Source of the DNA: Cyanobacteriota bacterium
GTDB lineage: Bacteria > Cyanobacteriota > Cyanobacteriia > PCC-6307 > Cyanobiaceae
Length of the DNA: 64,000 bases
NCBI GenBank assembly: GCA_046052125.1
Contig: JBJOMY010000003.1
Span: forward strand, 64,001 to 128,000
Direction: 5' to 3'
Shown here: piece by piece, positions 1,805 through 49,227 of the stretch
How the letters are laid out: each line of letters begins with the position of its first letter
Position numbering within the stretch: the first letter of the stretch is position 1
Position numbers and translations under genes: made by a program
Notes under the pieces: generated by a model
What the model saw: only the letters and a program-made list of their open reading frames with translations
The model's database searches: none
What the model was told of the DNA's origin: nothing

Positions 1805-2111
1805 GTCTTGCGAGCATCCTTGGTCTCAATTTGCACGCATGGAAACTGTTGTATTTCATCTGACAAGAAGATGGCGTACGTTCACGCTTTGGCGACCAAC
1901 CCAGTCTTAAACAACTCAGAAAGCCATGCTGGCGGCATGAGGGTCTGGACAGTGATCATTTCGCTCAGGGTTCCATGGGCATCGGATCGCGCTAGCAGTG
2001 CCTCCTCGGGAAGCTTCCACAAACCGTAGGCGTCATCGACGGATCCGAGAACACCGCCCTGCCACAGGTTGATTGCCGCGCAGGCAAAAGCAGTTAGCGC
2101 AGCTGATCCCC

Positions 2112-4366: not shown

Positions 4367-4370
4367 TGCT

Positions 4371-4883: not shown

Positions 4884-4886
4884 GCG

Positions 4887-5453: not shown

Positions 5454-5523
5454 TTTCTGCCTCGGCAACAGGGGATGGCAGCGCCGCGATGGGCTGCCGA
5501 TCCACTGACAGCCGAGACGGGTC

Positions 5524-6384
5524 ATGGCCACTGCTTCCGCAACCCCCAGCACCAGCACCACCCGCAGCGGAGGTGATGGCCACGAACTCCTGGATCTCCA
5601 GGGCTCTGAGACCAGCGAGCAGGACAGCACTCAGGGCGACCACAGCACTGGCCCGGATCCTGCACCCACCGCCAATGAACCCACCCAGGGATCTGGAGGT
5701 GATGGCCTCAGCGAGGCCCTCAAGGCCGAGCGCCGCCGCAGTAACAACCTCGAAAAAGAACTGCGCGGGCTGCGGCAACAGCTGACTCGTTTCTCGGAGA
5801 TCAACCCCGAGGAGTACGCCCGTCTGCAGGAGGCCGAACGCCAAAAGCAGCACCTCGAGCAGCAGCTGGAGCTGCGGGAACGCCAGATGGAGGAGGCCGC
5901 CGCCAAGCGGGTGGCAGCCGTCAGTGCAGAGCGCGACGCCGCCCATGAGCGGGTGCAGGAGCTACGCAAGGAGCGGCTGCTGGAGCGGGCTTTCTCAGAA
6001 GCGGAAGGGCGCACCGGCGGCGATGGGCGCGGCACCTTCTTTCAGGTGTTTCGCTCGATGCTCTGGGACTGCTTCCGGCTGGGCAGCAGCAAGGACGGCG
6101 GCGATGTGCTCGAACCCCTCGACGGCCATGGCCAGCCACTGCTCGGTGACGACGGCCGGCCGATGACCACAGCCGACTACCTCGATCAGCTGCGCATCCA
6201 CCCCGTGTATGGCTTTCTGTTCCAGCAGCGCGGCGCCATGGGTACCGGTGCCATGCCCGCGGGCACTACAGCCGGCAGCCTCGGCGCCAGCGGTTTTGGG
6301 GAGGTGATCAATCCACAGGCGATGAGCGCCAGCGAGCTCTACCGGGCTGGCTTTGTCAGCAATGGCCGCATGGCCCGGCACTGA
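5524..6384 (+). CDS. Putative capsid scaffold protein
   Basis: Acidic disordered N-terminus, long coiled coil (ALKAERRRSNNLEKEL...INPEEY), YGFLF motif and Gly-rich tail, as in phage scaffolds; lies between portal and capsid genes. Confidence 0.65.
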   Translation: MATASATPSTSTTRSGGDGHELLDLQGSETSEQDSTQGDHSTGPDPAPTANEPTQGSGGDGLSEALKAERRRSNNLEKELRGLRQQLTRFSEINPEEYARLQEAERQKQHLEQQLELRERQMEEAAAKRVAAVSAERDAAHERVQELRKERLLERAFSEAEGRTGGDGRGTFFQVFRSMLWDCFRLGSSKDGGDVLEPLDGHGQPLLGDDGRPMTTADYLDQLRIHPVYGFLFQQRGAMGTGAMPAGTTAGSLGASGFGEVINPQAMSASELYRAGFVSNGRMARH

Positions 6385-6442
6385 ACGCTTCTGCCAGCCG
6401 TTCCTACGGTGACATCACCAAGGGGGATTCCCCAGACAGCAA

Positions 6443-7330
6443 GTGATGGCCAGGCAAGAACAGCGGTTGGCGGCCAACGTTCCTGGGCCCTTCTATGTCG
6501 ACGGCAGCTGCATCGACTGCGGCACCTGCTGGCAGTTCGATCCGCTGCACTACGCCCCGACCGGCAGCAGTTCGCGGGTGCAGCGCCAACCGGATGGCGC
6601 TGCCGAACTGCGGCAGGCACTGCTGGCCCTGCAGGCCTGCCCGGTGGCTGCGATCGGCACCAGCCGTGAACTGCTGGCTCAGATGCCCATGGATGGCTTT
6701 CCGGTTCTGATCACGCGCCATGCGGCTGGGGACGTCTACTACTGCGGTTGGGCATCACGGCGCAGCTTTGGTGCCAGCAGCTGGTTGGTGGTGCGCCCTG
6801 ACGGCAACGTGCTGATCGATGTGCCGCGCTGGAGTGCACCCCTCGCCCGGCGCATCAAGGATTTGGGCGGTCTGCGGCGCATCGTGCTGACGCACCGCGA
6901 TGACGTGGCCGATCAGGCGCACTGGTCCCGGGCATTCGGAGCCGAACGCTGGATCCACGCGGCCGACGCCGATGCCGCCCCCCAGGCCGAGCATCAGCTG
7001 AGCGGCAGCGATGCCCTGCACCTGGATGTGGACCTGCAGTTGATCCCCACTCCTGGTCACACAGCTGGCTCGATGGTGGCGGTGCTGGGAGGGCGCGAAC
7101 AGGTGCTGTTCAGCGGCGATCACCTTTGGTGGAACCCGGCGCATCAAGCGGTCGTGGCTTCCAAGGCCTACTGCTGGTGGAACTGGAGTGCGCAGCTGCG
7201 CTCCGTCGAGCGGCTGCTGGATCTCGATGTGGCCTGGCTGCTGCCTGGTCATGGCCATCAGCATCAGTTCACGCCCGGCCAGTGGCGAGTTGCCTTGGAG
7301 CAGACGCTGGCGTACGCCACGGCGCCGTGA
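6443..7330 (+). CDS. Ferredoxin-fused MBL-fold metallo-hydrolase
   Basis: CIDCGTC...CP ferredoxin motif; THRDD, PGHTAGS, FSGDH and LPGHG MBL motifs. Confidence 0.9.
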   Translation: MMARQEQRLAANVPGPFYVDGSCIDCGTCWQFDPLHYAPTGSSSRVQRQPDGAAELRQALLALQACPVAAIGTSRELLAQMPMDGFPVLITRHAAGDVYYCGWASRRSFGASSWLVVRPDGNVLIDVPRWSAPLARRIKDLGGLRRIVLTHRDDVADQAHWSRAFGAERWIHAADADAAPQAEHQLSGSDALHLDVDLQLIPTPGHTAGSMVAVLGGREQVLFSGDHLWWNPAHQAVVASKAYCWWNWSAQLRSVERLLDLDVAWLLPGHGHQHQFTPGQWRVALEQTLAYATAP

Positions 7331-7339
7331 AGAGCAAGC

Positions 7340-7363
7340 AAAAAGGCCCGGCAAGGCCGGGCC
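7340..7363 (-). terminator. Intrinsic terminator
   Basis: GGCCCGGC-AAG-GCCGGGCC stem preceded by an A-run (U-tract on the minus strand), just past the stop of 7378-7593. Confidence 0.65.
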
Positions 7364-7377
7364 AGGAGGCCGCCGCC

Positions 7378-7593
7378 TCAGAGCACCGAGACGGTGCCGA
7401 GGCGCTTGGCGGCCAGCTTGCGGGCCAGCTGATGGGCCAGCTCAGCTGGAATGAAACGCGGCTTCTTCACGGGCTTGCCGCGGCGGCCATAGAAGACCGT
7501 GACGCGCTCGGCAGCGGCGACCTTGAGCCCAGCCGGATAGCTGTGCAGCACCAGCTGACGGATCGGACAGGCCAGAGGAGCAGAGGAGGCCAT
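7378..7593 (-). CDS. Small basic hypothetical protein (71 aa)
   Basis: MASSAPLACPIRQLVLHSYP...KKPRFIPAELAHQLARKL; followed by a terminator and preceded by a hairpin element. Confidence 0.6.
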   Translation of the reverse strand: MASSAPLACPIRQLVLHSYPAGLKVAAAERVTVFYGRRGKPVKKPRFIPAELAHQLARKLAAKRLGTVSVL

Positions 7594-7805
7594 GGGACGG
7601 AGGCGAGGAACACCTGTCCCATCGCCCCGGACGACACGCCCTGGCAAGGGTCGGCGTAGCCGACTCGCGTCAGCCCTTGCCAGGGTGGGGCGAGCAGGGC
7701 GCAGCCCTGCGCTCCGGGGCAGTGCTGGTGATTCCTCGCCGACCCCATGGCCGGACGGCTGCCGGGGCCTGGTTGAGACAGCAGCCGCAACACCGGCTGT
7801 AGAAC

Positions 7806-8486
7806 GTGGCGATGACGGCTCCTGAGAACGCCCACAGCCAGCGCTACACCGATGCCCTGGGCTGGGCGGCTGAGCTGCACCGCGGTCAGCGTCGCAAGGG
7901 CAAGCCGGTTCCTTACATCGCCCACCTGATCGCCGTGAGTGCTCTGGTGTGGGAGGACGGCGGCAGCGAAAACCAGGCGATTGCGGCTCTGCTGCACGAC
8001 GCCATCGAGGATGCGGGTCAGAGCCAGGCCTCGATTGCCGCACGCTTTGGCGAGGAGGTGGCCGCGATCGTGGTGGACTGCACCGACACAGCTGGCCCCG
8101 TGGAGCCCGGCGCCGAAAAGGAACCCTGGCTGCTGCGCAAGACCCGCTATCTCGCCTCGCTGGAGGAGAAGCCGCAGACCTCTTTGCTGGTGACGGCAGC
8201 CGACAAGGCCCACAACGCCCGCGACCTGGTGCTCGATGCCCGCAGCCACCCTGGTGGCTGGGAGCGTTTCACGGCGGGGCTGGAGGGCAGCGCCTGGTAT
8301 CTGCTGCGCGTTCAGCAGGCCCTGAGCCATCGCTTGCCGGAGAGTCGCTCCACCGCCCTACTGGCAGAAGCTGTGCAAGAACTGCTGAGCAGCGAGCCCT
8401 ACCGGCGCCTGGTGCCCCATGGCATCGCTCCGGCGGTGTGGGCCGCCAGCTACCTGGAGCGGCCAGAGGCCCATCCCCAGCCTTGA
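7806..8486 (+). CDS. HD-domain protein, small alarmone hydrolase/Mesh1-like
   Basis: HRGQRRKG..PYIAHL, ALLHDAIED and ADKAHN motifs of the RelA/SpoT hydrolase domain. Confidence 0.85.
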   Translation: MAMTAPENAHSQRYTDALGWAAELHRGQRRKGKPVPYIAHLIAVSALVWEDGGSENQAIAALLHDAIEDAGQSQASIAARFGEEVAAIVVDCTDTAGPVEPGAEKEPWLLRKTRYLASLEEKPQTSLLVTAADKAHNARDLVLDARSHPGGWERFTAGLEGSAWYLLRVQQALSHRLPESRSTALLAEAVQELLSSEPYRRLVPHGIAPAVWAASYLERPEAHPQP

Positions 8487-8525
8487 ACGTCCTGCGGCCG
8501 TTCTCAGCGCTGCGGCCAGACTGGT

Positions 8526-8783
8526 TCAGTTGTCTGGATCGCGGCGTCGGCCGCTGACGATGCTGCCGCCACCGAGCAAGGCCAGGCTGGTTCCAACCGC
8601 CGCCTCAAAGGTCTGCTGCAGGTTCTCGGCGTAGCTGCTGCACACCGGGCCAAGCCGCCGCTGCAGACCAAGCCAGAAGCAACCGCCCAGGCCAGCGGCA
8701 TAGAGCGCGAACTGGGCGATGAAGACCCCCGCCACCGCCCGCAACAGAAAGCGCTCGCGATCAAATCCATCGCCACCAGCCAT
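8526..8783 (-). CDS. Small two-TM membrane protein, holin-like
   Basis: 85 aa, two hydrophobic segments, charged C-terminus, directly downstream of the peptidase gene. Confidence 0.45.
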   Translation of the reverse strand: MAGGDGFDRERFLLRAVAGVFIAQFALYAAGLGGCFWLGLQRRLGPVCSSYAENLQQTFEAAVGTSLALLGGGSIVSGRRRDPDN

Positions 8784-8800
8784 GGCTGTGCTCCTTGGGG

Positions 8801-9547
8801 TCAGGGTTGGCAGGTGAGCAGCCAGCCGGTGCCGGGGCCATCGGCCTGCCAGCGCGGCAGCCAGTTCTTCCAGCTGTAGTGCTGCCCTGCTCCATTGGTG
8901 TTGGCGGTGTAGCCGCCGTGGACCAGGTCGGCCTCACCGTTGGGGTCGTTGTGGATGGCGACTGTCTCGGTGAAACCGATCACCACGCTCCAGTGACCGC
9001 CGCCGCTGGGTGCAGAAGCGGGGCCGTGGTGCAGCCAGCCCACTGCGACCGGTCGCCCCAGGTTGATCTGTTCCTCCAGCGTTGCGCGCTGGCCGTTGGT
9101 GGCGAAGTGGGCAGTCAGCCCCAGGGATCGCAACGCCGCCAACTGAGCTTCTGCCGAGGTGGTGTCGCCATAGCGGGCACGGATGACGTTGTAGGCGTCA
9201 TCGCCACTGACCTTGCCCCAGAAGCGGGCGAGCATGGCGCAGCTGCTGGAGAAGCACTCGCGGTAGCCAGTGCCTGAAGCGTTGTCGTTCTGGTTCTCCC
9301 AGGCCACCGGCAGCGGATTGGCATGGGCCGGGGCTGGGGGAGCTGATGAAAAGGTCTGCCGCCATGGGGCGGCCTCGGTGAGGACCTGTGGATCGGCCGC
9401 CATGACCGCCAGCCGCAATTGCTCGATGCCGGCGAGCTGCTGAGGCTGACCCTTCCAGTGGTCCCAGAACTGACGCCAGCGCTCAGCGCTGAACGGCGCC
9501 TGGTCACCAGGCGCGACGGCAGCCGGAGTGGGAGAGCTTGGAGACAT
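8801..9547 (-). CDS. C39-like cysteine peptidase (putative endolysin)
   Basis: NQNDN...RECFSSSCAM, GGGHWSVVIG and HNDP motifs (Q, C, H, D catalytic layout); alternative start at 9586. Confidence 0.8.
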   Translation of the reverse strand: MSPSSPTPAAVAPGDQAPFSAERWRQFWDHWKGQPQQLAGIEQLRLAVMAADPQVLTEAAPWRQTFSSAPPAPAHANPLPVAWENQNDNASGTGYRECFSSSCAMLARFWGKVSGDDAYNVIRARYGDTTSAEAQLAALRSLGLTAHFATNGQRATLEEQINLGRPVAVGWLHHGPASAPSGGGHWSVVIGFTETVAIHNDPNGEADLVHGGYTANTNGAGQHYSWKNWLPRWQADGPGTGWLLTCQP

Positions 9548-9681
9548 GGCAGCAGGGCAGTCCTCTGCTGTTGCCGCAGCATCCATCCACTGATCAAGGC
9601 CTGCCTGCGTGTCACCTGTCGGGCTGCTTGAGACCGCCGCGCCCGTGATACCTGCGGTTCAGATTGCTTAGCCTGGGGGCC

Positions 9682-9900
9682 ATGACCAACCCCCAGCTCA
9701 CCGAGAACCTGCTCGCCGTGATCCGCAGCCTGCCGGCTGACGATCGCCGCTGGCTGCTCAGGCAGCTGGAGCAGGACAACAGTGACCTGAGTCACGGTGC
9801 CCTGGCTGAGATGGCGATGGCCGGGGGAGCCTTTGACGACCTGGCCGCTGAACCTGAGCTCTACAGCTTCTCCGACGGAGAAGCGATCGTTGCCGGCTGA
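9682..9900 (+). CDS. Putative antitoxin
   Basis: Small acidic ORF coupled (TGATG) to the PemK/MazF gene. Confidence 0.65.
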   Translation: MTNPQLTENLLAVIRSLPADDRRWLLRQLEQDNSDLSHGALAEMAMAGGAFDDLAAEPELYSFSDGEAIVAG

Positions 9901-10247
9901 TGCTCAGCCGCTACGACATCGTGCTTGTCGCCTTCCCTTTCACGGATGGGCCGGCGGCCAAGCCTCGCCCGGCTTTGGTGATCACCACCAGTGATCGCCA
10001 TGGGGATGTGCTGCTGGCCTTCATCAGCTCCAACATCAGCGGCCCAACGGCCAGCGATGAGCTCGACATCCCAGCCGACCATCCAGGCTTCTCAGACACC
10101 GGCCTGAAGGTGAGCTCAAGGCTGCGGCTCAGCCGCATGACAACGCTGGCCATGCCACTCGTGAAACGGCGCATCGGACGACTGCCGCTGGCCTTGCAGA
10201 CGAACTGCCAGCAGGTGCTGCAGCGGGTGATCGGCGCCCAAGGCTGA
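9900..10247 (+). CDS. PemK/MazF family toxin
   Basis: DIVLVAFPFTD...KPRPALVI...TGLKVSS...IGRL. Confidence 0.9.
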   Translation: MLSRYDIVLVAFPFTDGPAAKPRPALVITTSDRHGDVLLAFISSNISGPTASDELDIPADHPGFSDTGLKVSSRLRLSRMTTLAMPLVKRRIGRLPLALQTNCQQVLQRVIGAQG

Positions 10248-10323
10248 ACGCTCTCCTGTGGGGCAGTTCGTGTCGCCTCGGCAATAGCCCCTGACATCAA
10301 TGGGGCCCGGCCCCACCTGTGCC

Positions 10324-11253
10324 ATGGGCCTCACCCTGATCGAGGCAGCCAAATACGAGCACCGGCTTGAGCACCTGGCTGTGCTCAAGACCTTCTCGGA
10401 GGGCGAACTGCTCGCCCGGCTGCCGTTCATGAACATCGCCGGCAGCGGCCTCTTCTATTCCGCCGAGCAGGAGCTGCCCTCGGTGGGCTTCCGCGCCGTG
10501 AACGAGGGCTACACCCAGAGCTACGGCGTGGTGGATCAGCGCGCAGAAGCGGTGCACCTCTTTGGTGGTGATGTGGATGTGGACCGCTCGATCGTGGACC
10601 TGATGGGCCCTGAGGCCCGCGCCAGCCAGATCGAGATGAAGGTGCGCTCGATGCGCCTCACCCTGGAGGCGACCGTGATCAACGGCGACACCGCCAGCAA
10701 CCCCCGCGCCTTTGACGGCTTGAGCAAGCGCCTGCCGCCCGGCAACCCGATGGCGATCAACAACGCCTCCGGTGCCATTCCCGGTGCGCCGCTGAATTTC
10801 GATCGGCTTGATGAGCTGATCGATTCAGTGAATGCCTACGGCGGCAGCAAGGTGCTGGTGATGAGCAAGGCGATGCGCCGCCAGCTCAATGCTCTCGCCC
10901 GCGCCTCCATCGGCGGTGGTGTGTACCAGACCAGCACCAACTCCTACGGGATGACGGTGCACCGCTACCAGGACTGCGACATCCTCACCGTCGACCGCGA
11001 TGCCCAGGGCGTCGAGGTGATGGGCTACGACGAGGCGGGCGGCACCAGCTCGATCTACTGCTGCACCTTTGGCGATCAGGGCGTGACCGGCCTGCAGGGC
11101 CCGTTCCAGGGCCGCTATGGGATCTCGGTGCGGGACCTGGGCGAGGTGCCCGATGCCCCGGTGTTCCGCACCCGCGTGGATTGGTACGTGGGCTTTGCCG
11201 TGCTGCAGCCCCGCGCCGCCGGCCGTCTGTTCAACATCACCCCCGCTGCCTGA
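10324..11253 (+). CDS. Major capsid protein (HK97-fold, resembles the epsilon15 gp7-like family)
   Basis: MGLTLIEAAK...LPSVGFRAVNEG...GGDVDVDR...INGD...FDGL...TSSIY...RTRVDWYVG. Confidence 0.85.
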   Translation: MGLTLIEAAKYEHRLEHLAVLKTFSEGELLARLPFMNIAGSGLFYSAEQELPSVGFRAVNEGYTQSYGVVDQRAEAVHLFGGDVDVDRSIVDLMGPEARASQIEMKVRSMRLTLEATVINGDTASNPRAFDGLSKRLPPGNPMAINNASGAIPGAPLNFDRLDELIDSVNAYGGSKVLVMSKAMRRQLNALARASIGGGVYQTSTNSYGMTVHRYQDCDILTVDRDAQGVEVMGYDEAGGTSSIYCCTFGDQGVTGLQGPFQGRYGISVRDLGEVPDAPVFRTRVDWYVGFAVLQPRAAGRLFNITPAA

Positions 11254-11256
11254 GCC

Positions 11257-11694
11257 ATGGCCCTCACAAACGGCAACCCCTTGATCGATGCGGAGACCAC
11301 CCTGGTGGGCTGGACCAACCGCAGCGCCATCCGCAACACAGAGCACACCTTCCTCTCCGGAGAGGAGGTGCTGCTCAACACCAAGCTCGATGCGGCCTCC
11401 CGCTTCTCGCTGGTGGCCTCCCATCCCGGCGCGCCTGCCGCGGTGGAGGTGGAACTGCTGCTGGCACCGGTACTGCGCGATGGCACCACCGGCAGCTGGA
11501 TCAGTGCCGTCCGCGTTGCCCTACCGGCAGAAGGCGGCCGGGTGGAGGCATTTCTTTCCGGCCATGACATCCAGATCACACCGGCGGATCTGCCCAACCT
11601 CGATCTGCCGGCGGTGTGTTTCGCCAAGGCGCTCGTGACCCCGACCACCCCGGCGGGCATGCACGCGGGCCTGACGGCCACGATTGCGGCCTGA
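11257..11694 (+). CDS. Putative capsid decoration/cement protein
   Basis: 145-aa beta-rich ORF 3 bp after the capsid gene. Confidence 0.5.
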   Translation: MALTNGNPLIDAETTLVGWTNRSAIRNTEHTFLSGEEVLLNTKLDAASRFSLVASHPGAPAAVEVELLLAPVLRDGTTGSWISAVRVALPAEGGRVEAFLSGHDIQITPADLPNLDLPAVCFAKALVTPTTPAGMHAGLTATIAA

Positions 11695-11698
11695 GCCC

Positions 11699-12121
11699 AT
11701 GGCCCGCAAACGCTCCACCAGCCCTGCAGAGGAACCGGCAGCCGAGGAGCAGCCGGCGCAGCCCACGCCGATCGAGCTTCCACCCGCCGCCGCAACCCGC
11801 CACGACCTGGGGGATCCCACCGTGCCGGCCGGCCTGGTGCGCATCAGCAACGGCAGCGGTGAGCGCTTCATCTGGCCGGTGCACCTGGGCGGCTGGCAAC
11901 AACAGGGCTGGACCCTGATCGCTGCCGCCACCGGCCTTCAGATCACGCCGGCACCAACAGCGCCTGCAGCAGTGATCGAGGTGCCGCTGGCCGCAGCAAC
12001 GCCAGAGGCGAGCACAGTCGAACCAATCCCAGACGACGCCGAGTCCGAGTTGGCAGCCACCTGGGAGCTGGAAAGCAGCGCCACAAGCGAGGCGCTGCTG
12101 CTCGACGACCCGCTGCTTTGA
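11699..12121 (+). CDS. Hypothetical virion-associated protein
   Basis: ATG at 11699; Pro/Ala/Glu-rich with a central WPVHLGGWQQQGW motif; in the capsid operon. Confidence 0.55.
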   Translation: MARKRSTSPAEEPAAEEQPAQPTPIELPPAAATRHDLGDPTVPAGLVRISNGSGERFIWPVHLGGWQQQGWTLIAAATGLQITPAPTAPAAVIEVPLAAATPEASTVEPIPDDAESELAATWELESSATSEALLLDDPLL

Positions 12122-12124
12122 GGG

Positions 12125-12913
12125 GTGATCGCTTCCGTGCGCTCCTTTCTTCCCTCCCAAGCGAGCAGCACGGCAGCCAGCCCGCAGCTGATTCGCGTGC
12201 TGCCTCCTCTGGGCTGCCCGGGCGAGAGCGTGTGGGTGCCTCCCGTGGAGGTGAGCCGCTGGGAGCAGCAGGGCTACCGCCGCGCTCCCATCCCCGCCGC
12301 ACCGCTGGAGTTGGCCTGGCTGCCGGATGCGCCTGTGCCCCTGGACCCAGCTGGCAGCACCGCGGTGTTGCTGCTGCTCCAGGCCCGGCCACCGTTGCCA
12401 ACGGCGCTGTCGCTGGATTGGGGTGACGGCAGCGTTGAAACCTGGCCCTGGCCCCGCGGCGACAATGCGCCGCGGCTCCGCCATGCCTATACCTGCGCCC
12501 AGGACTGGCAGGTTTCGGCAGAACTGAGCGGCAGCGGCATCAGCGCCGAGCTGGCGGTGCATCTGCTGGGCTGCCCGATTTGGCCGCCACCGCCACCCCT
12601 GCCGCCGGGGGCGATTCAGCCGCTCATCCCCGGCAGTGGCCTGCTCGGCCAACCGTTTGATGGCCGGCGCCGCGAGCAGTGGCAGCTGCAGCGCTGGAGT
12701 GGCGGCACCAGCAGCGGCGGCGTACCAGCCAGCGATGGCTCCAGCACCCGCTTCCTGCGGGCCGATGGCCTCTGGGCCACCCCGCCGGGCAGTGGCGGTG
12801 GCACCCGCTGGTGGAGCGGCGAGGGGCCACCCGGAGTGCTCCCTGATGCCCAAGCGGGTGACTTCTATCTCGACACCCGCAGCGGTGATCTCTACCAACT
12901 GGAGCTGAGCTGA
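12125..12913 (+). CDS. Putative fibre-base protein with PKD/Ig-like segment
   Basis: LDWGDGS...HAY (PKD-like), RFLRADGLWATP fibre-type motif, C-terminal GDFYLDTRSGDLY. Confidence 0.6.
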   Translation: MIASVRSFLPSQASSTAASPQLIRVLPPLGCPGESVWVPPVEVSRWEQQGYRRAPIPAAPLELAWLPDAPVPLDPAGSTAVLLLLQARPPLPTALSLDWGDGSVETWPWPRGDNAPRLRHAYTCAQDWQVSAELSGSGISAELAVHLLGCPIWPPPPPLPPGAIQPLIPGSGLLGQPFDGRRREQWQLQRWSGGTSSGGVPASDGSSTRFLRADGLWATPPGSGGGTRWWSGEGPPGVLPDAQAGDFYLDTRSGDLYQLELS

Positions 12914-13380
12914 TGCCCTGGACCCACAGCACCAACCTCAAGGGGCCTTCGATGCTGCGGCTGGCGCGGCTACCGGCGGCGCTGAGCACCAGCTCCGGCA
13001 CCAGTTGGCTCACCTTGTTCACCACACCGCTGGCGGCGCAGCAGGTGCTCTCCTTTGCGGCGGAGCTCTACTTCTCCAGCGGCGCCAACAACACCGGCCT
13101 GGTGACCACCCTCTCTGGCCCCGCCGGGCCGCATGCGGTGATTCACAACCTGGTGACGGGTGAATCGCTCACCACCTTCCGCAACCTCACCGCCAGCAGC
13201 TACGACACGCCCCTGATCGGCACCAGCTCCGCCGGCAGTTCGGTGCTCAGGGCTCAGGTGAGCGGCACGGTGGAGAACGGCGCCAATGCCGGCAACCTCA
13301 GCCTGCGTTTTCGCTCAGAGGTGGCCGGCACCGCGGTGACAGTGCTGCGCGGCTCCTGGTGGCAAGTGCTGCAGCACTGA
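12913..13380 (+). CDS. Putative fibre-tip beta-sandwich protein
   Basis: TGATG-coupled to the previous gene; Ser/Thr-rich beta pattern resembling collagen-associated C-terminal head domains. Confidence 0.5.
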   Translation: MPWTHSTNLKGPSMLRLARLPAALSTSSGTSWLTLFTTPLAAQQVLSFAAELYFSSGANNTGLVTTLSGPAGPHAVIHNLVTGESLTTFRNLTASSYDTPLIGTSSAGSSVLRAQVSGTVENGANAGNLSLRFRSEVAGTAVTVLRGSWWQVLQH

Positions 13381-13450
13381 GCTGCGTTCACTCCAGCTCA
13401 CCAACGGCAATAGGGAGTGTTCTCTCTGGCCCTTGGGCCGCTGCTCTGTC

Positions 13451-14011
13451 ATGGCCTGGATTCCCTCCGGTTCACTCAAGGGTCCGCACGGTGATCCCGG
13501 CCCCCAGGGCCCCCAGGGGGTGCAAGGCCAACCCGGTGCCGATGGTGCCCAGGGCGTGCAAGGCCCGCAGGGACCTGCGGGGATACAGGGCGTCGCCGGC
13601 CCAGAAGGACCCCAGGGCCAGCAGGGCATCCAGGGTGCCCCGGGTCTGGGCATCACCTTCAAGGGGCACGTGCCCACGGTGGCGGATCTGCCCGCCGATG
13701 CCGCCCAGGGCGATGCCTACATCGTGCAGGCCGATGACTCCTTCCGCGTCTGGGACGCCACCAGCAGCACCTGGGTGGATGGGGGTTCGATCCAGGGACC
13801 CCAGGGCATCGCCGGCCCGCAGGGACCGCAAGGCCTGCAGGGAGAGCCCGGCCCCCAGGGCCTGCAGGGGGTGGAGGGCCCCAGTGGCCCCCAGGGCAAC
13901 CGCGGCACCGGCTGGTTCACCGGCAGTGGCGCACCCACCACCATTTCCGGCTCCATGCCGGGTGATCTGTACCTGGATCAGACCAGCGGCGATGTGTACG
14001 TGCTGAGCTGA
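13451..14011 (+). CDS. Collagen-like fibre protein
   Basis: Two Gly-X-Y runs (GPQGPQGVQG...) separated by a small knob domain. Confidence 0.9.
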   Translation: MAWIPSGSLKGPHGDPGPQGPQGVQGQPGADGAQGVQGPQGPAGIQGVAGPEGPQGQQGIQGAPGLGITFKGHVPTVADLPADAAQGDAYIVQADDSFRVWDATSSTWVDGGSIQGPQGIAGPQGPQGLQGEPGPQGLQGVEGPSGPQGNRGTGWFTGSGAPTTISGSMPGDLYLDQTSGDVYVLS

Positions 14012-14056: not shown

Positions 14057-14410
14057 TCAGGCCAGCATCAGCCGGCGCTGCGCCTCGAGCTGGGAGCGCC
14101 GCAGCAGCTCCTGCTCGGCCAGCAGCCGCTCATCGAGCTCATCGATGCGGGCCAGGCACTGCTGGATCGCGGGAATCACCTCTTCCTCCAGCAGGGTGAT
14201 CTCCTCTTCTCCATAGGGCTGCTCAATCCAGGTGCGCCGCAGCGCCAGCCCGCGCCGGCGCAGCAGGATCTCCTGCACGGAGCGGAGCGTGGATTCCAGC
14301 AACAGAAAGGGATCTTCCTCTGGTTTGCAGAACGCACCTTCCGGTGCGATAGGCCGGCAGAACGGTGATTCCGCGGAAGGCGGGATGCCAGCAGCAGAGC
14401 GTGTGGCCAT
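14057..14410 (-). CDS. Hypothetical protein (117 aa, coiled coil)
   Basis: ATG-started ORF with protein-like helical composition filling the gap. Confidence 0.6.
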   Translation of the reverse strand: MATRSAAGIPPSAESPFCRPIAPEGAFCKPEEDPFLLLESTLRSVQEILLRRRGLALRRTWIEQPYGEEEITLLEEEVIPAIQQCLARIDELDERLLAEQELLRRSQLEAQRRLMLA

Positions 14411-14520
14411 GACGATCGGCGCCGAGAGCGGCGCAGCGACGGGACCGATCCCAGCGGAGGCCCGACCGCAGGAGGGCCTCAGACTGGAGAGGCCCCGAGC
14501 CAGCCAGCTTCAGGGTCGGC

Positions 14521-14997
14521 TCAAGGCAGTCGACGCGTCAGTTGCTGCAGGCGTTCCGCGGCCTGTGTGGCTTCCTGCAAGAGCTGATCCCAGTCGTCCG
14601 GCGGATGGCCGCTGGCCAGCATCGACTGGAACACCCGGTAGGCATCGCTCTTGCTGCCGTAGGCGCGCTTGGTGTCGGTGTCGTTGACCCAGCCCAACAC
14701 GATCAGCCGTGAGCGGGTGTGAAACCGGAAGAACAAGCGGTATTGCTGAAAGAACTTGGCGCGTCGCCAGTGGCGATGCGCAGCGCCAAGGGTTGATCCC
14801 TGCTGATACTCCTTGCGGCTGGGGTCCTGGGGGATGTCCTGGAGCATCAGGCGGGTGATGGCCGCCAGGCGCTTGCTGGCGTTTTTGCTGCCATAGCCCT
14901 GTGGATCCTTGGCGCGCAACGCCTCCACCTCAGCGATCAACGCGTCCAGCTGATCCAGAAACAAGGGATGCGCATAGATCGTCCATCCGTTGATCAC
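14521..14997 (-). CDS. yhaV: YhaV family toxin (type II TA)
   Basis: INGWTIYAHPLF, QGSTLG..HRHWRRAKFFQQYRLFFRF, WVND..TKRAYGS. Confidence 0.92.
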   Translation of the reverse strand: MINGWTIYAHPLFLDQLDALIAEVEALRAKDPQGYGSKNASKRLAAITRLMLQDIPQDPSRKEYQQGSTLGAAHRHWRRAKFFQQYRLFFRFHTRSRLIVLGWVNDTDTKRAYGSKSDAYRVFQSMLASGHPPDDWDQLLQEATQAAERLQQLTRRLP

Positions 14998-15722: not shown

Positions 15723-16352
15723 TCAGCCCCCGCCCACCAACTGCAGGCGCAGGGCGGCGATGGCCTTTTTCTGGGCTCGCTGCACCGCCATGGCGCTGAT
15801 GCCCAGCTTGAGCCCAGCGGCCCGTAGCGACAGCCCCTCCAGCAGGGTGAGCCGCAACGCAGTGGCCTGTGGGGCTGGCAGCTGCTCGACCAGCTGCTCC
15901 ACGGCCAGCTCCTCAGCCCCAAGGCCTGAGGCCAGCTCGGCTGCAGGAGCTTCCAGCTGATCGAGCAGAGAGTGCTCGCCTTCCACCTGGACATCGAGGC
16001 TGACGTGGCCCAGCGGGCAGGTGCCCTTCTCGTGCTGCCGGCGGGAGATGCGCACCAGCCGCACTCGATCGCGCAGGTGGTGGTGCAGCGCCCCGGTGAT
16101 GCAGCGACGCAGATAGGGCTCCGCCGGCTCGCCGGGCTTGCAGCGCGGCACCGAGCGCAGCAGGGCCTCGCGGGCCACCTGGATCAGATCATCCCGCTCC
16201 ACCAGCGGGAACAGGCGCCGGGCCATGACGGAGGCGATGGCATCAGCCAGTGGCAGGTGCTGCAGCACCAGGGCATCGCGCGCAGCAAGGGATGCAGCCG
16301 GCAGGGCAGAGGCCTGCGGCTGGCGCCGGGACGGGGAAGCAAGGGCAGCCAT
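15723..16352 (-). CDS. Alternative sigma-70 factor (group 3, SigF/FliA-like, compact)
   Basis: RDALVLQHLPLA..IA (region 2.1), DDLIQVA, ITGALHHHLRDRVRLVRISR, VSLD, region 4 HTH LSLRAAGLKLGISAMAVQR. Confidence 0.85.
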   Translation of the reverse strand: MAALASPSRRQPQASALPAASLAARDALVLQHLPLADAIASVMARRLFPLVERDDLIQVAREALLRSVPRCKPGEPAEPYLRRCITGALHHHLRDRVRLVRISRRQHEKGTCPLGHVSLDVQVEGEHSLLDQLEAPAAELASGLGAEELAVEQLVEQLPAPQATALRLTLLEGLSLRAAGLKLGISAMAVQRAQKKAIAALRLQLVGGG

Positions 16353-16629
16353 CGGAGGGACGGCACACAACCCCACCCCCAACGGCCGGCCGGATCGCCG
16401 CGGCAAGGACGCACCGCCGAGGCAGGGCCTCAAGGGGCGCCAGGCCTGATCCTTGCCATGGCGTGAGGACTGGCCAACGGGATGCGGTGGGTGTGCGCCG
16501 GCTCACTGGCGGACCATTCCCATGACGTAGCAACAGCAGGCGAGGCCGCAGCTGCCCCAGCAGAAGCGGTCACTGCATGGAAGCCGCACCGGCCTGGCGT
16601 CAACGAAAGGGGGCCGCAGCCCCCAGCCC

Positions 16630-16857
16630 TCAGAAGGGCAACAGCGCCTCCAGCTCGCGATCAGCAGGCGGCTCAGGCTGCTCCGCCTGACGCTCAGTGA
16701 GCAGATCATCCAGCAGAGCTGCCAGCCGGATCAGCCCGCGGCACCAGCACTCTTCTGAAAGCCAGAGCAGCAAGCCATCGCTGCTGGCTGAGAAGTGCAG
16801 CCGGCGGGCGGCATGCAGGTGAACAGGGGTGTGAGCGGGAAGGCAAAGCGTGGCCAT
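16630..16857 (-). CDS. Small hypothetical protein (75 aa)
   Basis: ATG at 16857, preceded by a hairpin element; acidic tail ending LLPF. Confidence 0.5.
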   Translation of the reverse strand: MATLCLPAHTPVHLHAARRLHFSASSDGLLLWLSEECWCRGLIRLAALLDDLLTERQAEQPEPPADRELEALLPF

Positions 16858-17027
16858 GGCGGACCCAGCGCAGGACCCCACCTCCAAGCGGGGCGGGGTC
16901 AAGGACCCGCGCCATTCGCTTGATGTGCCGCGTCATGCGGCACCAACGACAACCAACCGCGGGCATGGCTCCGATCCTTGACGCCGCCCCGCACCATGAA
17001 GAGGCCTGCGCGGCAAGGTCAGGGGGA

Positions 17028-18035
17028 TCACTCCCCCCCGCTCTCGGGGCAAACCAGATCGGCCGCTTTGCGGGCATCGCTGAGCACCTGCAGCAGCACC
17101 CGCGGCGACTCTTTGAGCAGCTCCACCCAGTGGCCCAGGTAGGCGGCGTGATTGGCCATGGCACTGCCGATCTCCAAGCGATCACCGAGCAGCACCGCCC
17201 CCAGCTCGGCCACCAGCTCTTCTCGGGCATAGGCCCGGCCGCCATCGCCTGCTTTGCCCATGCCGCCGGAGAGATCACGGGCCAGCCGGGAGCTGTGGCC
17301 TGTGGAATGGATCACCTCATGGGCCCAGGTGGCATAGAGGGCCCCTGCCGAGTGGAAGGCGGTGCGATCAGGGAGCTGGATGCGATCGGGCACCGGCAGG
17401 TAGCAGGCCCGATCTCCTGCAAAGCTCACGGGCACCGGCCAGGTGCTGAGCACCGCCTCAGCATCAGCCAGCCGCTCCGGCTCGGGCCGCCGCACGGCCC
17501 CCTCGGCCTGGCGGCGCTTCTGGATCAGCGCCTCCAGAGCCTCGCCTTCCAGATCGGCGGCATTGAATAGTGCCACCGGCCGATAGCTGACCCAGCTGGG
17601 GCCAGGCTGAACCGACTGCTGGCCATCGGCGCCAGGTAATACCTGGCCACCCTGAGCAACTGAGCCCGGCTCCGCCAGACGGCTTTCGACTCCCAGATGC
17701 ACCTGGGGCCGCAGCACATGCACCGCTTTGCTGCCCTTACGGGGAAAGATCCCCAGGGCCTTGGCCTCCGAGAAGCCACACCAGTAAGGCAGGGCTGATT
17801 CCCGCAGGTGCATGCCCAGGGTGAGCAGTGCCGGGTTTGCTCCACGGTAGCGGCGGCCGGAGAGCAGATTCACGTGATGGCCCCCCGAGGCGGCATCCCA
17901 CTCCCGCCTCCAAGGGGTGGTGCCGGCCTCCAGCAGGGCGACCAGGGAGGCCACCAGCTTCTCCTCAGGGGAGACCTTGGCAGCAGCAGCTCCCTTGGCT
18001 GGCCGGGCGGAACGGGATGGTGAGGCAACAGCCAC
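17028..18035 (-). CDS. ardC: ArdC-like ssDNA-binding antirestriction protein (DUF1738 plus zincin-like domain)
   Basis: LEAGTTPWRREW, NLLSGRRYRGAN, ACYLPVPDRIQLP, AHEVIHSTGH, YAREELVAELGA. GTG start at 18035 preferred; ORF is open from 18101. Confidence 0.9.
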   Translation of the reverse strand: MAVASPSRSARPAKGAAAAKVSPEEKLVASLVALLEAGTTPWRREWDAASGGHHVNLLSGRRYRGANPALLTLGMHLRESALPYWCGFSEAKALGIFPRKGSKAVHVLRPQVHLGVESRLAEPGSVAQGGQVLPGADGQQSVQPGPSWVSYRPVALFNAADLEGEALEALIQKRRQAEGAVRRPEPERLADAEAVLSTWPVPVSFAGDRACYLPVPDRIQLPDRTAFHSAGALYATWAHEVIHSTGHSSRLARDLSGGMGKAGDGGRAYAREELVAELGAVLLGDRLEIGSAMANHAAYLGHWVELLKESPRVLLQVLSDARKAADLVCPESGGE

Positions 18036-18225
18036 GGATGGACAAGCGCAGGACCGCAAGCGCCAGCGCGGCCAGCGGCAAGGGCCGGCCAGGACACTCA
18101 TGGAACAAGTGCCACCGGTGTTTCATCGTCCGTGGCGGGCCGGCTTGCGAAGCCCTTGCGCGGCCGCGCACGCTGAGGATTCCTGCGCGTCGTTTTCCCC
18201 AATGACAGGGTCGGTGTTGGGTGGG

Positions 18226-26120: not shown

Positions 26121-27011
26121 TCAGAACTGGTTTTCATGCAGATCCTGCATTGTTTCGGAGAGACGCAGCTGCTGGCGTAGGGCCCGCACGGCTTCACGGG
26201 CGGCGGAGCCGCTCGCGGCTCCCTGGGGCAGCAGCAGCCAGAGCTGCTCCACCAGCAGCGGTTGATCAACCAGGAGCTGCAGGTCGTGGCGCTCCAGCCA
26301 GCTCTGCGTCACAAGTTCCGGGCTGATCGGCAGGGCCAGCTGCCGATCGCGGGCGCGCTTGATCCAGGCCTCGGCCTCCTGGCAGGCCGCTGGCTGCTGC
26401 TCCACCCCATAGCCCTGGGCGGCAACGGCCTGATGCAGCAGGGGGGCAACAGCTCTACGGGGCAGCAGCACCCGGCGGCTGGTGGCGGCTGTGGCCACCA
26501 ACTGCAGACGCAGTTGGCCCAGCGGCAGCACCACCAACCCCTCCCAATGCGGCAGCTGACCCGACAGCAGCCGGCGCTCCAGGCAAAAGGAGCTGAGCAG
26601 CGCTCCATCCAGCAGGCCATGTCGCACCAGCTCCGCCCAGTGCTCCGCCTGGCGGCAGCGCGCTGGCACCTGCTGAATCCCGGCCAGGCCCTGCAGCAGG
26701 CGTTGGTGCAGCACATCGGTGCCGATGCGCAGCAGCCCCTCCATCAAGCGGTGCTCGCGGTAGGCCAGCCGCAGGTGCTGCAGGCAGGTGTTGTGCCCGT
26801 GGCGGCACACCGACGATCCCTGACGCGGCACCAGCCGGAACTGCAGCTGCATCAACTGCACGCTTCGGCACACCGTGCTCTGGTGCATGGCCAGTGCAGC
26901 GCCGGCCTTGGCCTGGGAGCCGGCCAGCTCGAGAAAGTCGAGGATGTGCAGGTCTTCCAGCGCCGTGGGTGGCGCGTAACTGCTGACTGGAGGACTGCTG
27001 GAGCTGGCCAC
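26121..27011 (-). CDS. Putative regulator with LysR-like N-terminal HTH
   Basis: LELAGSQAKAGAALAMHQSTVCRSV HTH; LVRHGLLDGAL resembles a LysR effector domain; divergent from the WYL gene. Confidence 0.6.
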   Translation of the reverse strand: MASSSSPPVSSYAPPTALEDLHILDFLELAGSQAKAGAALAMHQSTVCRSVQLMQLQFRLVPRQGSSVCRHGHNTCLQHLRLAYREHRLMEGLLRIGTDVLHQRLLQGLAGIQQVPARCRQAEHWAELVRHGLLDGALLSSFCLERRLLSGQLPHWEGLVVLPLGQLRLQLVATAATSRRVLLPRRAVAPLLHQAVAAQGYGVEQQPAACQEAEAWIKRARDRQLALPISPELVTQSWLERHDLQLLVDQPLLVEQLWLLLPQGAASGSAAREAVRALRQQLRLSETMQDLHENQF

Positions 27012-27138
27012 GGCTGGCTGGAACGTTGCTGGCTGCAGCGTCAGCGCCGCAGCACCGATCCGAGTTGTTTTTCGTGCGAAAGAGAAGCCGCCGGGTCAGG
27101 ATGCGGCTTCTGTTGTGGGGTGGGAGTTGCCGGTGCCG

Positions 27139-29337
27139 ATGACGCCTGCGTTGCGCTGCCACCTATTGATCGGCCAGCCCGCCAGCGGCAAGACCACCCT
27201 GGCTAAAGCGCTGGCGCCCCTGCTCAGCGCCCCGGGTGAACCGCCGGCCCAGGTGCTCTCCACCGATGCGATCCGGGCAGAGGTCTCCGGGGATGCGGCG
27301 GTACAGGGCCCCTGGGTGGATATCCAACAGCGGCTGCACCAACGCATCCAGGAGTGTGTGGCCGCCGGCATCCCGGTGATCGTGGATGCCACCCATGCCC
27401 GCCGCGCTTGGCGGCTGGCGATCACCCAGGCGTTGCCGCTGCCAGCAGCGGTGGAGTGGATCGGTTGGTGGCTCTACACCGATCTGCCCACCTCGCTCGC
27501 CTGGAACGCCAAGCGCGAGCGGGCCGTGCCCGTGCCGGTGATCCAGGAGATGGCGGCCGCCCTGGCCGATCCGCACTTCGGGCCGTCACGGGCGGAGGGG
27601 TTTGCGGCGATCTGTGCCGTGGTGCCCACCCACCACAACGATCTGACGGCGGTGCTGCAGGCCGAACTGACCGGGCTCGACCAGCGGATTCGCTCGGCCA
27701 CCAACCGCGAACGCAAGCTGCAGCGCCACGGCTACTCGCGGCTGCTGGATCTGGAGCGGCTGCTCCACCTGATCCGGCTGCTGAGCACCTGGCCCGATCT
27801 GGCAGCCACCGACCCTGCCAGCGCAGAAGAGCTGGAGGCGATCCTCTCGCCGCTGCCTGCGGGCGATCTGGCGGATCGGGCGGCGGCCTTTTTGGGCAAG
27901 CTGCACGGAGCCTGTTTTGCCGATGCCAGCGCCATCCGCAACGACTTGGCCTGGCTGGAGGCCAATGGCTTCTGCAGCGCCATCCCTTGCACCACGCCCA
28001 TTCAGCTGGCGCCAGCGCCGCGGGCCGTCGGCCCCATTCATGGCGGGCTGCCGCCCATGGGCGATGGGCCGGTGTTTGTGCGGGTGATGACGCTGCTGCG
28101 CCACCTGCTGCAGGTGCCCTTTGATCGGCCAGCCGAGCGCGGCAGCACCCTGCATCAGCACCTGATCACCGCCACAGAAACCATCCCCGGCGCCTACCTG
28201 CCGGGCGAAACAGCCACCCTGCGCAAGGACCTCGAGAAGCTCCTCACCCCCTACGGCTTCCGCAACCGCAACGACAACGTGCGCCACGGCTACTGCCTGG
28301 GCACGGCCGTGCTCTCGCCGGCCCGGCTGCGGGAGGTGCACAACGTGGTGCAGCAGGCGGCTGGCCGGCTGGCCGATCCCTCGGCGCAAGACCTGTTGGC
28401 CGACCTGGATGAACGGCTGGGCTGGGCTGGCATCAGCGCCGATGGCCTGCCGCCGGTACGCAGCTACGCCCGCCATGCGGTGGTCGACACCCAACTGGTG
28501 CGCCGCGACTCGCTGGCGGCACCCCGCCGCGCCGAAGCGATCGAAGCGGCGATCGTCGAACACCGCCGCGTGCTGCTGCAGCGCTACCCCGGTGTGGGCA
28601 GCTTTGCTGACAGCCCCGCCGGTGAGCTGCGCGTCTGGCCGCTGCAGCTGATCTTCCACAACGTGGGTTGGTATCTCCTCTATGAGGAGGACCAGGTGGG
28701 GCGCGAGCAGGGGTTGATCCGCAGCGAACGGCTCGATCGCCTCGCCATGGCCCGCGGCGATGGCGACCTACGCCGCAGCCGTGAGCAGCACGCCGCAGCC
28801 ATCAACCGGCTGGAGCGCTTGCTGCACCACAGCGGCGGTGTTTACTTCGGCAGTGATCTGGAGCAGCAGCATGCGGTGGCCAGCAGCTCAGCCCAGCGCC
28901 GCAGCCAGGCGCTGGTGACCCTGCGCTTCTGCTGCAGCCCCTGGGCCTTTGCCTTCATTCGCGAGGGCCTGCAGCGCTACCCGATCGAGCACACCCGCTT
29001 CTCCAAACCCCTGCCCGGCGACACTTGGTGGCATCACCCCAAGGCTCCGCACGTGCTCGAGCCAGGGGCCTCAGATGCCAGCCACCCCTACCCTGTGGAG
29101 CTGGATCTGCCGCCCTGGACCGTGGCGGCCGACATCGACCTGCGCAGCTGGCTGTTCGCCTTTGGCGGCGGCATTCGCATCGAGCAACCGGATGCGCTCA
29201 GGCAGGAGCTGCTGCAGCGCTGCCAGGAGGCGATCGCGGCCAATGGCGGGCCAGCAAGCCCAGCGGATGCCGCGGACCAGCCCTCCCAGCGGACTCCTTT
29301 TGCGAACCGCCTGCACAAAGACACGCGGTTGTTGTAG
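27139..29337 (+). CDS. P-loop kinase (AAA_33/PNK-like) fused to a WYL-WCX domain
   Basis: LIGQPASGKTT, STDAIR, VIVDATH; VWPLQLIFHNVGWYLLY...SERLDRL; WLFAFGGGIRIEQPDALR. Confidence 0.88.
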   Translation: MTPALRCHLLIGQPASGKTTLAKALAPLLSAPGEPPAQVLSTDAIRAEVSGDAAVQGPWVDIQQRLHQRIQECVAAGIPVIVDATHARRAWRLAITQALPLPAAVEWIGWWLYTDLPTSLAWNAKRERAVPVPVIQEMAAALADPHFGPSRAEGFAAICAVVPTHHNDLTAVLQAELTGLDQRIRSATNRERKLQRHGYSRLLDLERLLHLIRLLSTWPDLAATDPASAEELEAILSPLPAGDLADRAAAFLGKLHGACFADASAIRNDLAWLEANGFCSAIPCTTPIQLAPAPRAVGPIHGGLPPMGDGPVFVRVMTLLRHLLQVPFDRPAERGSTLHQHLITATETIPGAYLPGETATLRKDLEKLLTPYGFRNRNDNVRHGYCLGTAVLSPARLREVHNVVQQAAGRLADPSAQDLLADLDERLGWAGISADGLPPVRSYARHAVVDTQLVRRDSLAAPRRAEAIEAAIVEHRRVLLQRYPGVGSFADSPAGELRVWPLQLIFHNVGWYLLYEEDQVGREQGLIRSERLDRLAMARGDGDLRRSREQHAAAINRLERLLHHSGGVYFGSDLEQQHAVASSSAQRRSQALVTLRFCCSPWAFAFIREGLQRYPIEHTRFSKPLPGDTWWHHPKAPHVLEPGASDASHPYPVELDLPPWTVAADIDLRSWLFAFGGGIRIEQPDALRQELLQRCQEAIAANGGPASPADAADQPSQRTPFANRLHKDTRLL

Positions 29338-45301: not shown

Positions 45302-45315
45302 CGTACATCTGCACT
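45302..45315. promoter_or_regulatory. LexA-box-like site
   Basis: AGTGCAGATGTACG on the minus strand versus the picocyanobacterial-type AGTAC-N4-GTACT; 15 bp upstream of the 45286 start. Confidence 0.55.
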
Positions 45316-49199: not shown

Positions 49200-49227
49200 G
49201 GCCCTTGGCCAATCCCTGAGAAGTCAA

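Follow-up and report, generated by a model that had tools for sequence, protein, structure and literature searches.

Promoter-like hairpins ahead of ardC and small genes in a head-encoding integrated element of picocyanobacteria

To our knowledge, conjugative plasmids, whose single strand is produced by a relaxase, are so far the sole setting in which promoters that act on single-stranded DNA (ssDNA) have been shown. The present study concerns hairpins found in front of ardC (H1), a 75-residue open reading frame (ORF) (H2), and a sigma factor gene (H3) in a 65-kb element that is integrated in a picocyanobacterial genome (G000; 2.64 Mb, 99.96% complete). The window is the whole stretch of DNA analyzed, 64,000 nucleotides at G000:C3:64001–128000, and positions given without a contig are positions in it. 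Among class 2 ssDNA promoters, ssp2 of F precedes klcA/yfgB, and promoters of pESBL precede klcA and ardA (PMC12672017, bioRxiv 10.64898/2026.01.09.698686). The Frpo promoters are defined by canonical boxes (PMC9849209, PMC11541004), so that the hairpins of the window are at best ssDNA-promoter-like and are not members of a class so far described. ArdC itself is needed in the recipient (PMC7213743).

Comparative analysis shows that these hairpins form a genuine and conserved family, which by its motifs would fold as DNA on the template strand. We hold with moderate confidence that H1 and H2 are promoters that would be active only on a single-stranded template strand, during establishment of the element by a non-conjugative route, and extend this to H3 with less assurance.

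The hairpins and their relatives

The first-pass annotation of the window had drawn three inverted repeats, each just 5′ of a minus-strand start, and had likened them to the leading region of a conjugative plasmid. The hairpins, their parts, and the genes that they lead are as follows.

18046–18188, plus strand (template of ardC): hairpin H1, 5′ of ardC, from folding, alignment, and covariation
18147–18153, plus strand: GC-GAA-GC DNA mini-hairpin at the H1 junction (motif class of PMC13037366)
18169–18178, plus strand: putative −10-like core and discriminator on the far arm of H1 (A−11 unpaired, T−7, G−6), from alignment A2
18108–18125, minus strand (sense of ardC): motif TG-R-R-AC-N6-GG-C-A-Y-T in the H1 loop
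17028–18035, minus strand: ardC, 335 residues, PF08401 and PF18818 (ArdcN and MPTase-PolyVal), phrog_7245
16868–17011, plus strand: hairpin H2, 5′ of the 75-residue ORF, from folding and from the H1 covariance model (E 2.8e-7)
16992–17001, plus strand: putative −10-like core on the far arm of H2 (A−11, T−7, G−6)
16630–16857, minus strand: 75-residue ORF, ending in an acidic stretch and LPF
16609–16629, minus strand: intrinsic-terminator-like stem between the 75-residue ORF and H3
About 16366–16495, plus strand: hairpin H3, 5′ of the sigma gene, with the core stem and junction of the family and no −10 core
15723–16352, minus strand: sigma factor, 209 residues, sigma-70 regions 2 and 4
48872–48999, plus strand: copy H4, beside the att site and ∼370 nt 5′ of the SLOG-Gp157-Rad52 operon (z −4.1)
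7612–7708, plus strand: copy H5, of the 52-nt class, 5′ of a 71-residue ORF at 7378–7593 on the minus strand (z −4.3)

H1 and H2 are present as they had been drawn and, folded as DNA, are more stable than dinucleotide shuffles (z −3.2 and −6.0, respectively); the bases of H1–H3 end 11–14 nt 5′ of the respective start codons, in agreement with their earlier placement. The predicted plus-strand fold of H1 has an outer stem, a bubble, a GC-rich stem, a CAAGG/CCTTG stem (18079–18083 with 18154–18158), and a three-way junction. There are 18 GCGCAGG...CCTGCGC pairs 97–207 nt apart in the 2.64-Mb genome, and only in H1 and H2 do they enclose CAAGG...CCTTG. H3 as originally drawn (16396–16463) is not clearly above chance (z −1.75, compared with −0.5 in a 91-nt window and −1.24 when extended), but it is conserved in relatives: its stems are kept in 13 other distinct copies, which show G-T/G-C exchange as well as a single two-sided change and from which H3 is seen to reach from about 16366 to 16495.

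ArdC homologues occur in 15 of 60 relatives, to which a further 160 ArdC loci were added, and a complete hairpin is found in 66 of the resulting 136 distinct ardC upstream regions (60 distinct cores). In alignment A2, a 28-pair structure on 51 sequences has 94.7% of its cells paired as compared with 87.3% in shuffles (0 of 500 shuffles) and two-sided changes in 10 of its 28 pairs, slid controls being 28–51% paired; these figures apply to related sequences from which the structure itself was drawn, with one subtype misregistered in one helix. With the proper register for that subtype, the two ardC subtypes have different bases at 5 of 7 pairs of this middle stem, and pairing is kept. Alignment across strains, proposed earlier as a check, has thus found the hairpins conserved, with compensatory changes.

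A first, loose descriptor gave 395 matches, with 87 in the control, and was replaced by a strict one, which gives no match in reversed sequence and 147 copies, 105 of them distinct, across the genome and the loci. Of the 105 distinct copies, 91 have a gene start on the opposite strand to the left, and 11 have one to the right. The genes led in this way belong to at least eight unrelated families, including ardC, the 75-residue ORF, the sigma gene, DUF7227, and several unknown ORFs, and the family core stands 41–44 or 51–57 nt from the start codon. A covariance model built from the relatives of H1 recovers H2, H4, and the new copy H5, and detects the family in 41 of 121 genomes of the picocyanobacterial family (17 of 36 genera) and in none of 93 genomes of other cyanobacterial families. 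A close capsid homologue is present in 30 of the 41 hairpin-bearing genomes. In 26 head-gene loci, not all of them independent, 53 of 53 copies lie on the sense strand of the head genes, which is the template strand of the hairpin-led genes (one reverse reading, L239, was removed before this count). We found no description of such hairpins in cyanobacteria or phage-like elements in search listings of the open-access literature.

Terminators were considered and rejected as an explanation: a U-tract follows 0 of 103 copies on the sense strand and 1 of 103 on the template strand, and none of H1–H3 is called as a terminator, so that the possibility, raised with the first-pass annotation, that the hairpins act only as terminators of upstream genes did not hold. 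The terminator-like stem at 16609–16629 separates H3 from the upstream genes, an arrangement that favors a promoter there. At 14395–14560, a 117-residue ORF comes from a family whose members at other loci have a hairpin in front; here apparently only the near arm is left.

Promoter-like anatomy and the strand that folds

The far arm reads A-N-N-N-T-G just past the GC-rich stem in 14 of 18 subtypes, as compared with 2 of 18 for the near arm and 2.3 expected from shuffles, and the A is mostly unpaired. In the columns of alignment A2, A is present in 50 of 51 sequences and T and G in all 51, and the bases between them vary; the same motif recurs in 22 of 24 new distinct copies that were collected after it had been defined. 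Four rows were removed before these counts (a chance match on C2, reverse readings on C3 and L165, and the mis-anchored row L116). T−7 falls 22–28 nt 5′ of the start codon in most subtypes, and in the orf78 subfamily, where the core lies 16 nt past the TTG, the start is likewise ∼10 nt further away. On fork junctions, sigma binds A−11, T−7, and the bases from −6 to −4 (PMC3753650). Between 15500 and 18400 the window holds no canonical sigma-70 promoter; the lack of a visible canonical −10 had been noted before, but the far arms of H1 and H2, though not of H3, carry this −10-like core. A sigma-54 reading of TGGC-N-TTG in H2 and H3 was rejected, PF04552 not being found in G000.

A second recurrent feature is a mini-hairpin at the template-strand junction (GC-G(N1–2)A-GC or GT-GAA-AC), present in 58 of 60 gene-anchored ardC hairpins, with G-N(1–2)-A loops whose middle bases are free and, in one copy, a compensatory stem change. 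Counts made on descriptor matches (90 of 102 against 20 of 102) are circular and were not used as evidence. Mini-hairpins of this class are far more stable as DNA than as RNA and occur at the G4 and ssiA ssDNA origins and in the N4 promoter (PMC13037366). They also mark priming sites at G4 and ssiA (PMC13037366). Transcripts from Frpo act as primers, and second-strand synthesis is stalled by ssp2 (bioRxiv 10.64898/2026.01.09.698686). The hairpins might accordingly signal priming on a single strand or act as roadblocks to replication, recognized by the element primase or by RNA polymerase as primer maker, with gene expression secondary. The element does encode a primase, H4 has no start codon at the distance usual for the family, and the copies lie on one strand; but priming needs neither a fixed distance to the starts of at least eight unrelated gene families nor a −10-like core on the far arm, and we regard this explanation as unlikely.

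Assignment to the template strand is based on the motifs, namely the mini-hairpin and the −10 core, and not on folding energy. ViennaRNA energies favor the template strand in all 23 copies examined for the second ardC subtype and in all 13 for H3, and G-T wobbles in the core helices favor it 16 to 10, plus 15 in one subtype. The opposite assignment would be expected if the structure acted as RNA, either as a sense leader that blocks read-through or translation, as does EGeRS1, which blocks read-through and has no promoter (PMC8708921), or as a processing site in the opposite late transcript. Folding of H1 on the sense strand is equal or better, the stem ends 11–14 nt before the start, and the plus strand is also the sense strand of the late genes. 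However, 2-bp mini-hairpins with free G-N(1–2)-A loops, mostly not GNRA, fit template-strand DNA; U-tracts are lacking, no Rfam 15 family gave a match near its gathering score, and transcripts that start from the motif in the H1 loop would miss the far arm. We consider a role as RNA unlikely.

If the hairpins are ssDNA promoters, their operation can be pictured as follows. With the plus strand single-stranded, the far arm would fold onto the near arm, the pairing being supported by covariation, and would form a short GC-rich duplex that ends in a fork, of which A−11 is the first unpaired base, followed by T−7 and G−6; these bases are present, and their proposed role is recognition by sigma. 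The mini-hairpin would cap the duplex and may protect it from nucleases and from ssDNA-binding protein (SSB). Host RNA polymerase would start ∼16–22 nt before the start codon, giving ArdC and small establishment proteins, and synthesis of the second strand would silence the promoter, since a −10 core is lacking on the near arm. In this lineage ardC likely has, in addition, a second, double-strand promoter in common with the host gene comM.

The latter suggestion arises from the motif in the H1 loop, which is found in 92 of the 136 ardC upstream regions and in 1 of 136 on the opposite strand. Motif and hairpin occur together in 34 regions, the motif without a complete hairpin in 58, the hairpin alone in 32, and neither in 12. 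The motif also precedes the host ComM-like gene (ChlI family) at a fixed distance in 14 of 21 genomes, with 0 on the opposite strand, and lies ∼27 nt before the comM start in G000. It is likely an ordinary double-stranded DNA (dsDNA) promoter or operator and possibly represents an undescribed picocyanobacterial promoter class or operator. A position weight matrix scan gave 16 matches, which listed comM and two small genes; comEC was not seen among them, so that the motif is not established as a general competence box. The motif was seen as well before a DUF4160 gene and an aspartyl-protease gene. Its sites outside the window, comM included, are at G000:C5:217561, C5:171361, and C2:306987 and in loci L247–L267.

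It could be argued from the loop motif that all of these genes have ordinary dsDNA promoters, that the inverted repeats are operators or cruciforms extruded by supercoiling, and that there is no single-stranded stage, the more so as ArdC occurs in dsDNA phages. Ordinary promoters had been named beforehand as an outcome contrary to the first-pass annotation, and for ardC the 58 regions with the motif and no complete hairpin bear this out in part. On the other hand, the hairpin is present without the motif in 32 regions, the spacer stems vary freely in sequence with pairing kept, and extrusion from duplex DNA is unlikely because the arms are GC-rich and contain many mismatches. We consider this explanation distinctly unlikely.

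A number of observations weigh against the hairpins being ssDNA promoters and should be recognized together. We know of no ssDNA stage in an element that has a dsDNA terminase. A complete hairpin is limited to the 66 ardC regions given above, the motif before ardC without a hairpin and before comM means that ardC probably has an ordinary promoter too, and the capsid-less neighbor elements of G000 carry copies on both strands. The −10 motif was noticed after the data had been viewed, in related sequences, and the core is missing in H3 (12 of 12 copies), in the orf77 subtype (8 of 8), in H4, and in H5. Position −12 is G or C and never T, and loss of T−12 costs 170–260-fold in fork-junction binding in Escherichia coli (PMC3753650). 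The TTG of the right arm, described earlier as a −35-like hexamer, is indeed present, but it stands 7–8 nt before the core in H1 and H2 and 5–8 nt before it in most copies, which is not −35 spacing; taking it as a −35 element with a −10 element 17 nt on was rejected, there being no conserved hexamer at that place. ViennaRNA energy favors the sense strand in 34 of 37 H1-type copies, as do G-T wobbles over whole arms (60 to 37). No covariance-model match to ssp2, Frpo1, or Frpo2 was obtained at E ≤ 10 in F 50000–67000. Metatranscriptome contigs X1–X4 are short pieces, without strand or ends, that cover genes and intergenic DNA alike and are possibly DNA. The suggestion of ssDNA promoters in the first-pass annotation has gained in that the hairpins are conserved, covary, lack U-tracts, and have the anatomy expected on the template strand, and has lost in that H3 lacks the core.

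The element, its genes, and a possible source of a single strand

The 3′ half of tRNA-Pro(TGG) is repeated at 49211–49270 in the window and at G000:C3:47918–47960, and these repeats bound the 65-kb element; a second element sits beyond it.

49211–49301, minus strand: tRNA-Pro(TGG) with att repeat, right end of the element
G000:C3:47918–47960, outside the window: left att repeat of the element
2073–14011, plus strand: head module, from Pfam and PHROG scans
2073–3503, plus strand: portal, in the head module
5524–6384, plus strand: scaffold, in the head module
10300–11253, plus strand: major capsid protein, in the head module
13433–14011, plus strand: collagen-like fiber, in the head module

Besides these, the element encodes an integrase, a helix-turn-helix (HTH) protein, a gp2.5-like SSB, VRR-NUC, a helicase, a primase, a large terminase, an endolysin-like peptidase, a type I restriction-modification system, metal cargo, and SLOG-Gp157-Rad52. 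The PHROG scan of its ORFs recognized no tail tube, sheath, or tape measure, and none was recognized in a scan of 47 unknown proteins, almost all of them encoded by related elements; most of the 47 gave no PHROG match whatever, so that unrecognized tail parts are possible. With head and packaging genes and no recognized tail genes, the element resembles, on its gene content, capsid-forming phage-inducible chromosomal islands (PICIs). In related elements (L228, L233, L237, L238, and L242), several proteins of 290–500 residues encoded 3′ of the collagen gene have no PHROG match and are possibly unrecognized attachment or tail parts, which the element of the window lacks. The capsid protein is 99–100% identical in G143, G172, G083, and G175, which represent three other genera, and this near-identity indicates recent transfer between genera.

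The earlier calls of ArdC and the sigma factor are confirmed by their domains, and the small ORF is present, with 75 residues. ArdC has both the ssDNA-binding ArdC-N domain and the zincin metallopeptidase domain, with HE-x-x-H kept in 12 of 12 aligned sequences. The 75-residue protein has no Pfam, PHROG, or ESM Atlas match, and its homologues are likewise hairpin-led. Its C terminus (16630–16680) is acidic and ends in LPF (LPY in relatives), and a 124-residue protein of the element (G000:C3:60896–61270) also ends in LPF. Such ends resemble the C-terminal tail of SSB, and the LPF-ending proteins are possibly mimics of it. Close homologues of the sigma factor mostly carry H3, whereas upstream of a less closely related subfamily, found in capsid loci, the descriptor gives no match. 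The proposal that this sigma factor drives the capsid genes was not supported: several capsid regions have no such sigma near ardC, all 4 elements in which the stretch from terL to portal was seen have a short sigma gene there, and nothing in the sequences ties the full 209-residue protein to capsid genes. Nor does its proposed activation by ssDNA fit the absence of the −10 core from all 12 copies of the H3 subtype. Immediately outside the left end of the window (C3 ∼63440–63950), terL is followed by a short gene with sigma region 2, and an identical 9-mer, a candidate late promoter word, stands ahead of the scaffold (5460–5468) and capsid (10276–10284) genes.

Because the arrays of small hairpin-led genes are co-oriented, include ardC, and resemble F ssp2 in layout, the cassettes might be a conjugative leading region, the element being mobilized in trans or recently descended from a conjugative element. 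We give this explanation very little credence. The genome has matches to none of 7 relaxase and type IV secretion system (T4SS) families, including relaxase, coupling protein, and VirB4 families; no coupling protein was found in 26 genomes of the genus or 111 of the family; and none was found among 120 recurrent neighbor families of ardC, in a scan for relaxases that excluded 119 long proteins found in fewer than 3 loci. The hairpin family, moreover, is absent from the 93 genomes outside the picocyanobacteria. The search for a relaxase, rolling-circle Rep, or T4SS that had been proposed as a check thus yielded no relaxase or T4SS family and no Rep_trans in the genome; Rep_1 also had no match, in a search whose control gave none either. 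ArdC is found in 44 phage records, cyanophages included, and the conjugative traits ascribed to the element find no counterpart in these results. The context of a conjugative leading region is lacking insofar as no relaxase or T4SS was found, oriT not having been searched for.

Of the remaining routes by which a single strand might arise, the best fit would be entry by way of the competence channel of the host, the DNA coming from tail-less particles or being free after release. The host comEC reading frame is open, and comEC is present in 90 of 121 family genomes. It occurs in 40 of the 41 genomes with hairpins and in all 33 with the capsid gene, an association confounded by phylogeny; those listed as lacking comEC are small and come from other genera, and many comEC-positive genomes are without the element. 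If packaging proceeds in the direction of the head genes and the DNA is ejected last-in, first-out, and with even prior odds, the 53 copies in head-gene loci all lie on the strand that would enter with its 3′ end in front. The strand taken up by ComEC is the one with its 3′ end leading (PMC12455585), and DNA of the gene transfer agent of Rhodobacter capsulatus (RcGTA) crosses the inner membrane via ComEC/ComF and needs DprA and ComM (PMC12378983). As a tentative and rather doubtful extension, tail-less head-forming elements may hand packaged DNA to ComEC of the recipient and run an establishment program from ssDNA promoters until primase, SSB, and annealing proteins rebuild the duplex. Consistent with such a route are the failure to find tail or conjugation genes, the co-occurrence of comEC, the strand of the copies, the motif shared by ardC and comM, and capsid proteins 99–100% identical across four genera. 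If such a route exists, the element would resemble a virus that propagates itself and uses transformation as its means of infection.

Several further features of the element and its genome were observed. An AAA_33 protein (27115–29337, plus strand) has a weak match to WCX, a WYL-associated domain, and is divergent from an HTH-like unannotated gene (26121–27011, minus strand); WYL regulators sense ssDNA, and the protein could be a second ssDNA sensor. Sites like LexA boxes, judged by the cyanobacterial consensus, are at 48634–48647, before SLOG-Gp157-Rad52, and at ∼45302–45315, before a 94-residue ORF. Four regions of G000 (C1 ∼661000–689000, C3:14532–47918, and C1 ∼159000–179000 and 707000–736000) contain another head-encoding element, which has a copy of H3, and three DnaG/DnaB elements that are related, lack a capsid, and also bear hairpins of the family; the capsid-less elements could be passengers of capsid elements.

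Comparison with described systems

Capsid-forming PICIs and Tycheposons are integrated at tRNA genes, encode an integrase, primase, terminase, portal, and capsid, have no recognizable tail, and carry defense cargo; capsid-forming PICI particles become infective with tails of helper phages. The 65-kb element shares with them tRNA integration, integrase, primase, head genes, the lack of a recognizable tail, and defense cargo, but differs in its size of 65 kb, its collagen-like fiber, two sigma-like genes, annealing proteins, and the ssDNA-promoter-like hairpins. RcGTA is tailed. Its delivery of DNA from a capsid particle through ComEC/ComF (PMC12378983) is a precedent only for the route proposed here; RcGTA packages random host DNA and cannot propagate itself, and for the 65-kb element such a route is only a proposal.

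EGeRS1, found before the ardC operons of pLS20-family plasmids (PMC8708921), is similar in consisting of repeated GC-rich structures before ardC and small genes, with no sigma-A promoter seen. EGeRS1 elements are, however, 400–750 nt in length, and the transferred strand is the non-template strand, whereas the picocyanobacterial hairpins are 110–145 nt and have their promoter-like core on the template strand. Class 1 promoters, Frpo and ssi1–3, together with the Frpo′/Frpo* candidates (PMC9849209, PMC11541004), are similar in that fold-back rebuilds a promoter before establishment genes and that several co-oriented copies are present. The picocyanobacterial hairpins differ in lacking canonical −35 and −10 boxes, and no relaxase was found with them.

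There is also a likeness to the hairpin before klcA of F, a class 2 promoter that is equated with ssp2 by position only. Inspected by eye in NC_002483, it has the same layout, being on the template strand before an anti-restriction gene, with a mini-hairpin beside CCCTTG, a GC-rich stem, a bubble at −10, and GGAGG/GAGG after T−7. By our own reading of F, TTG and a near-consensus −10 element are 15 nt apart there and T−7 is ∼58 nt from the start, whereas the picocyanobacterial hairpins have G or C at −12, a spacing of mostly 5–8 nt, and a short leader, and belong to a head-encoding integrated element rather than a conjugative plasmid. The ssDNA-promoter-like hairpins, as judged from sequence, resemble the class 2 promoter of F without detectable homology. 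If our interpretation is correct, they represent a compact promoter that may work without a −35 element or T−12, and they point to an unexplained single-stranded step in the spread of such elements, with their defense and metal-resistance cargo, among freshwater picocyanobacteria, a route of transfer that becomes directly testable.

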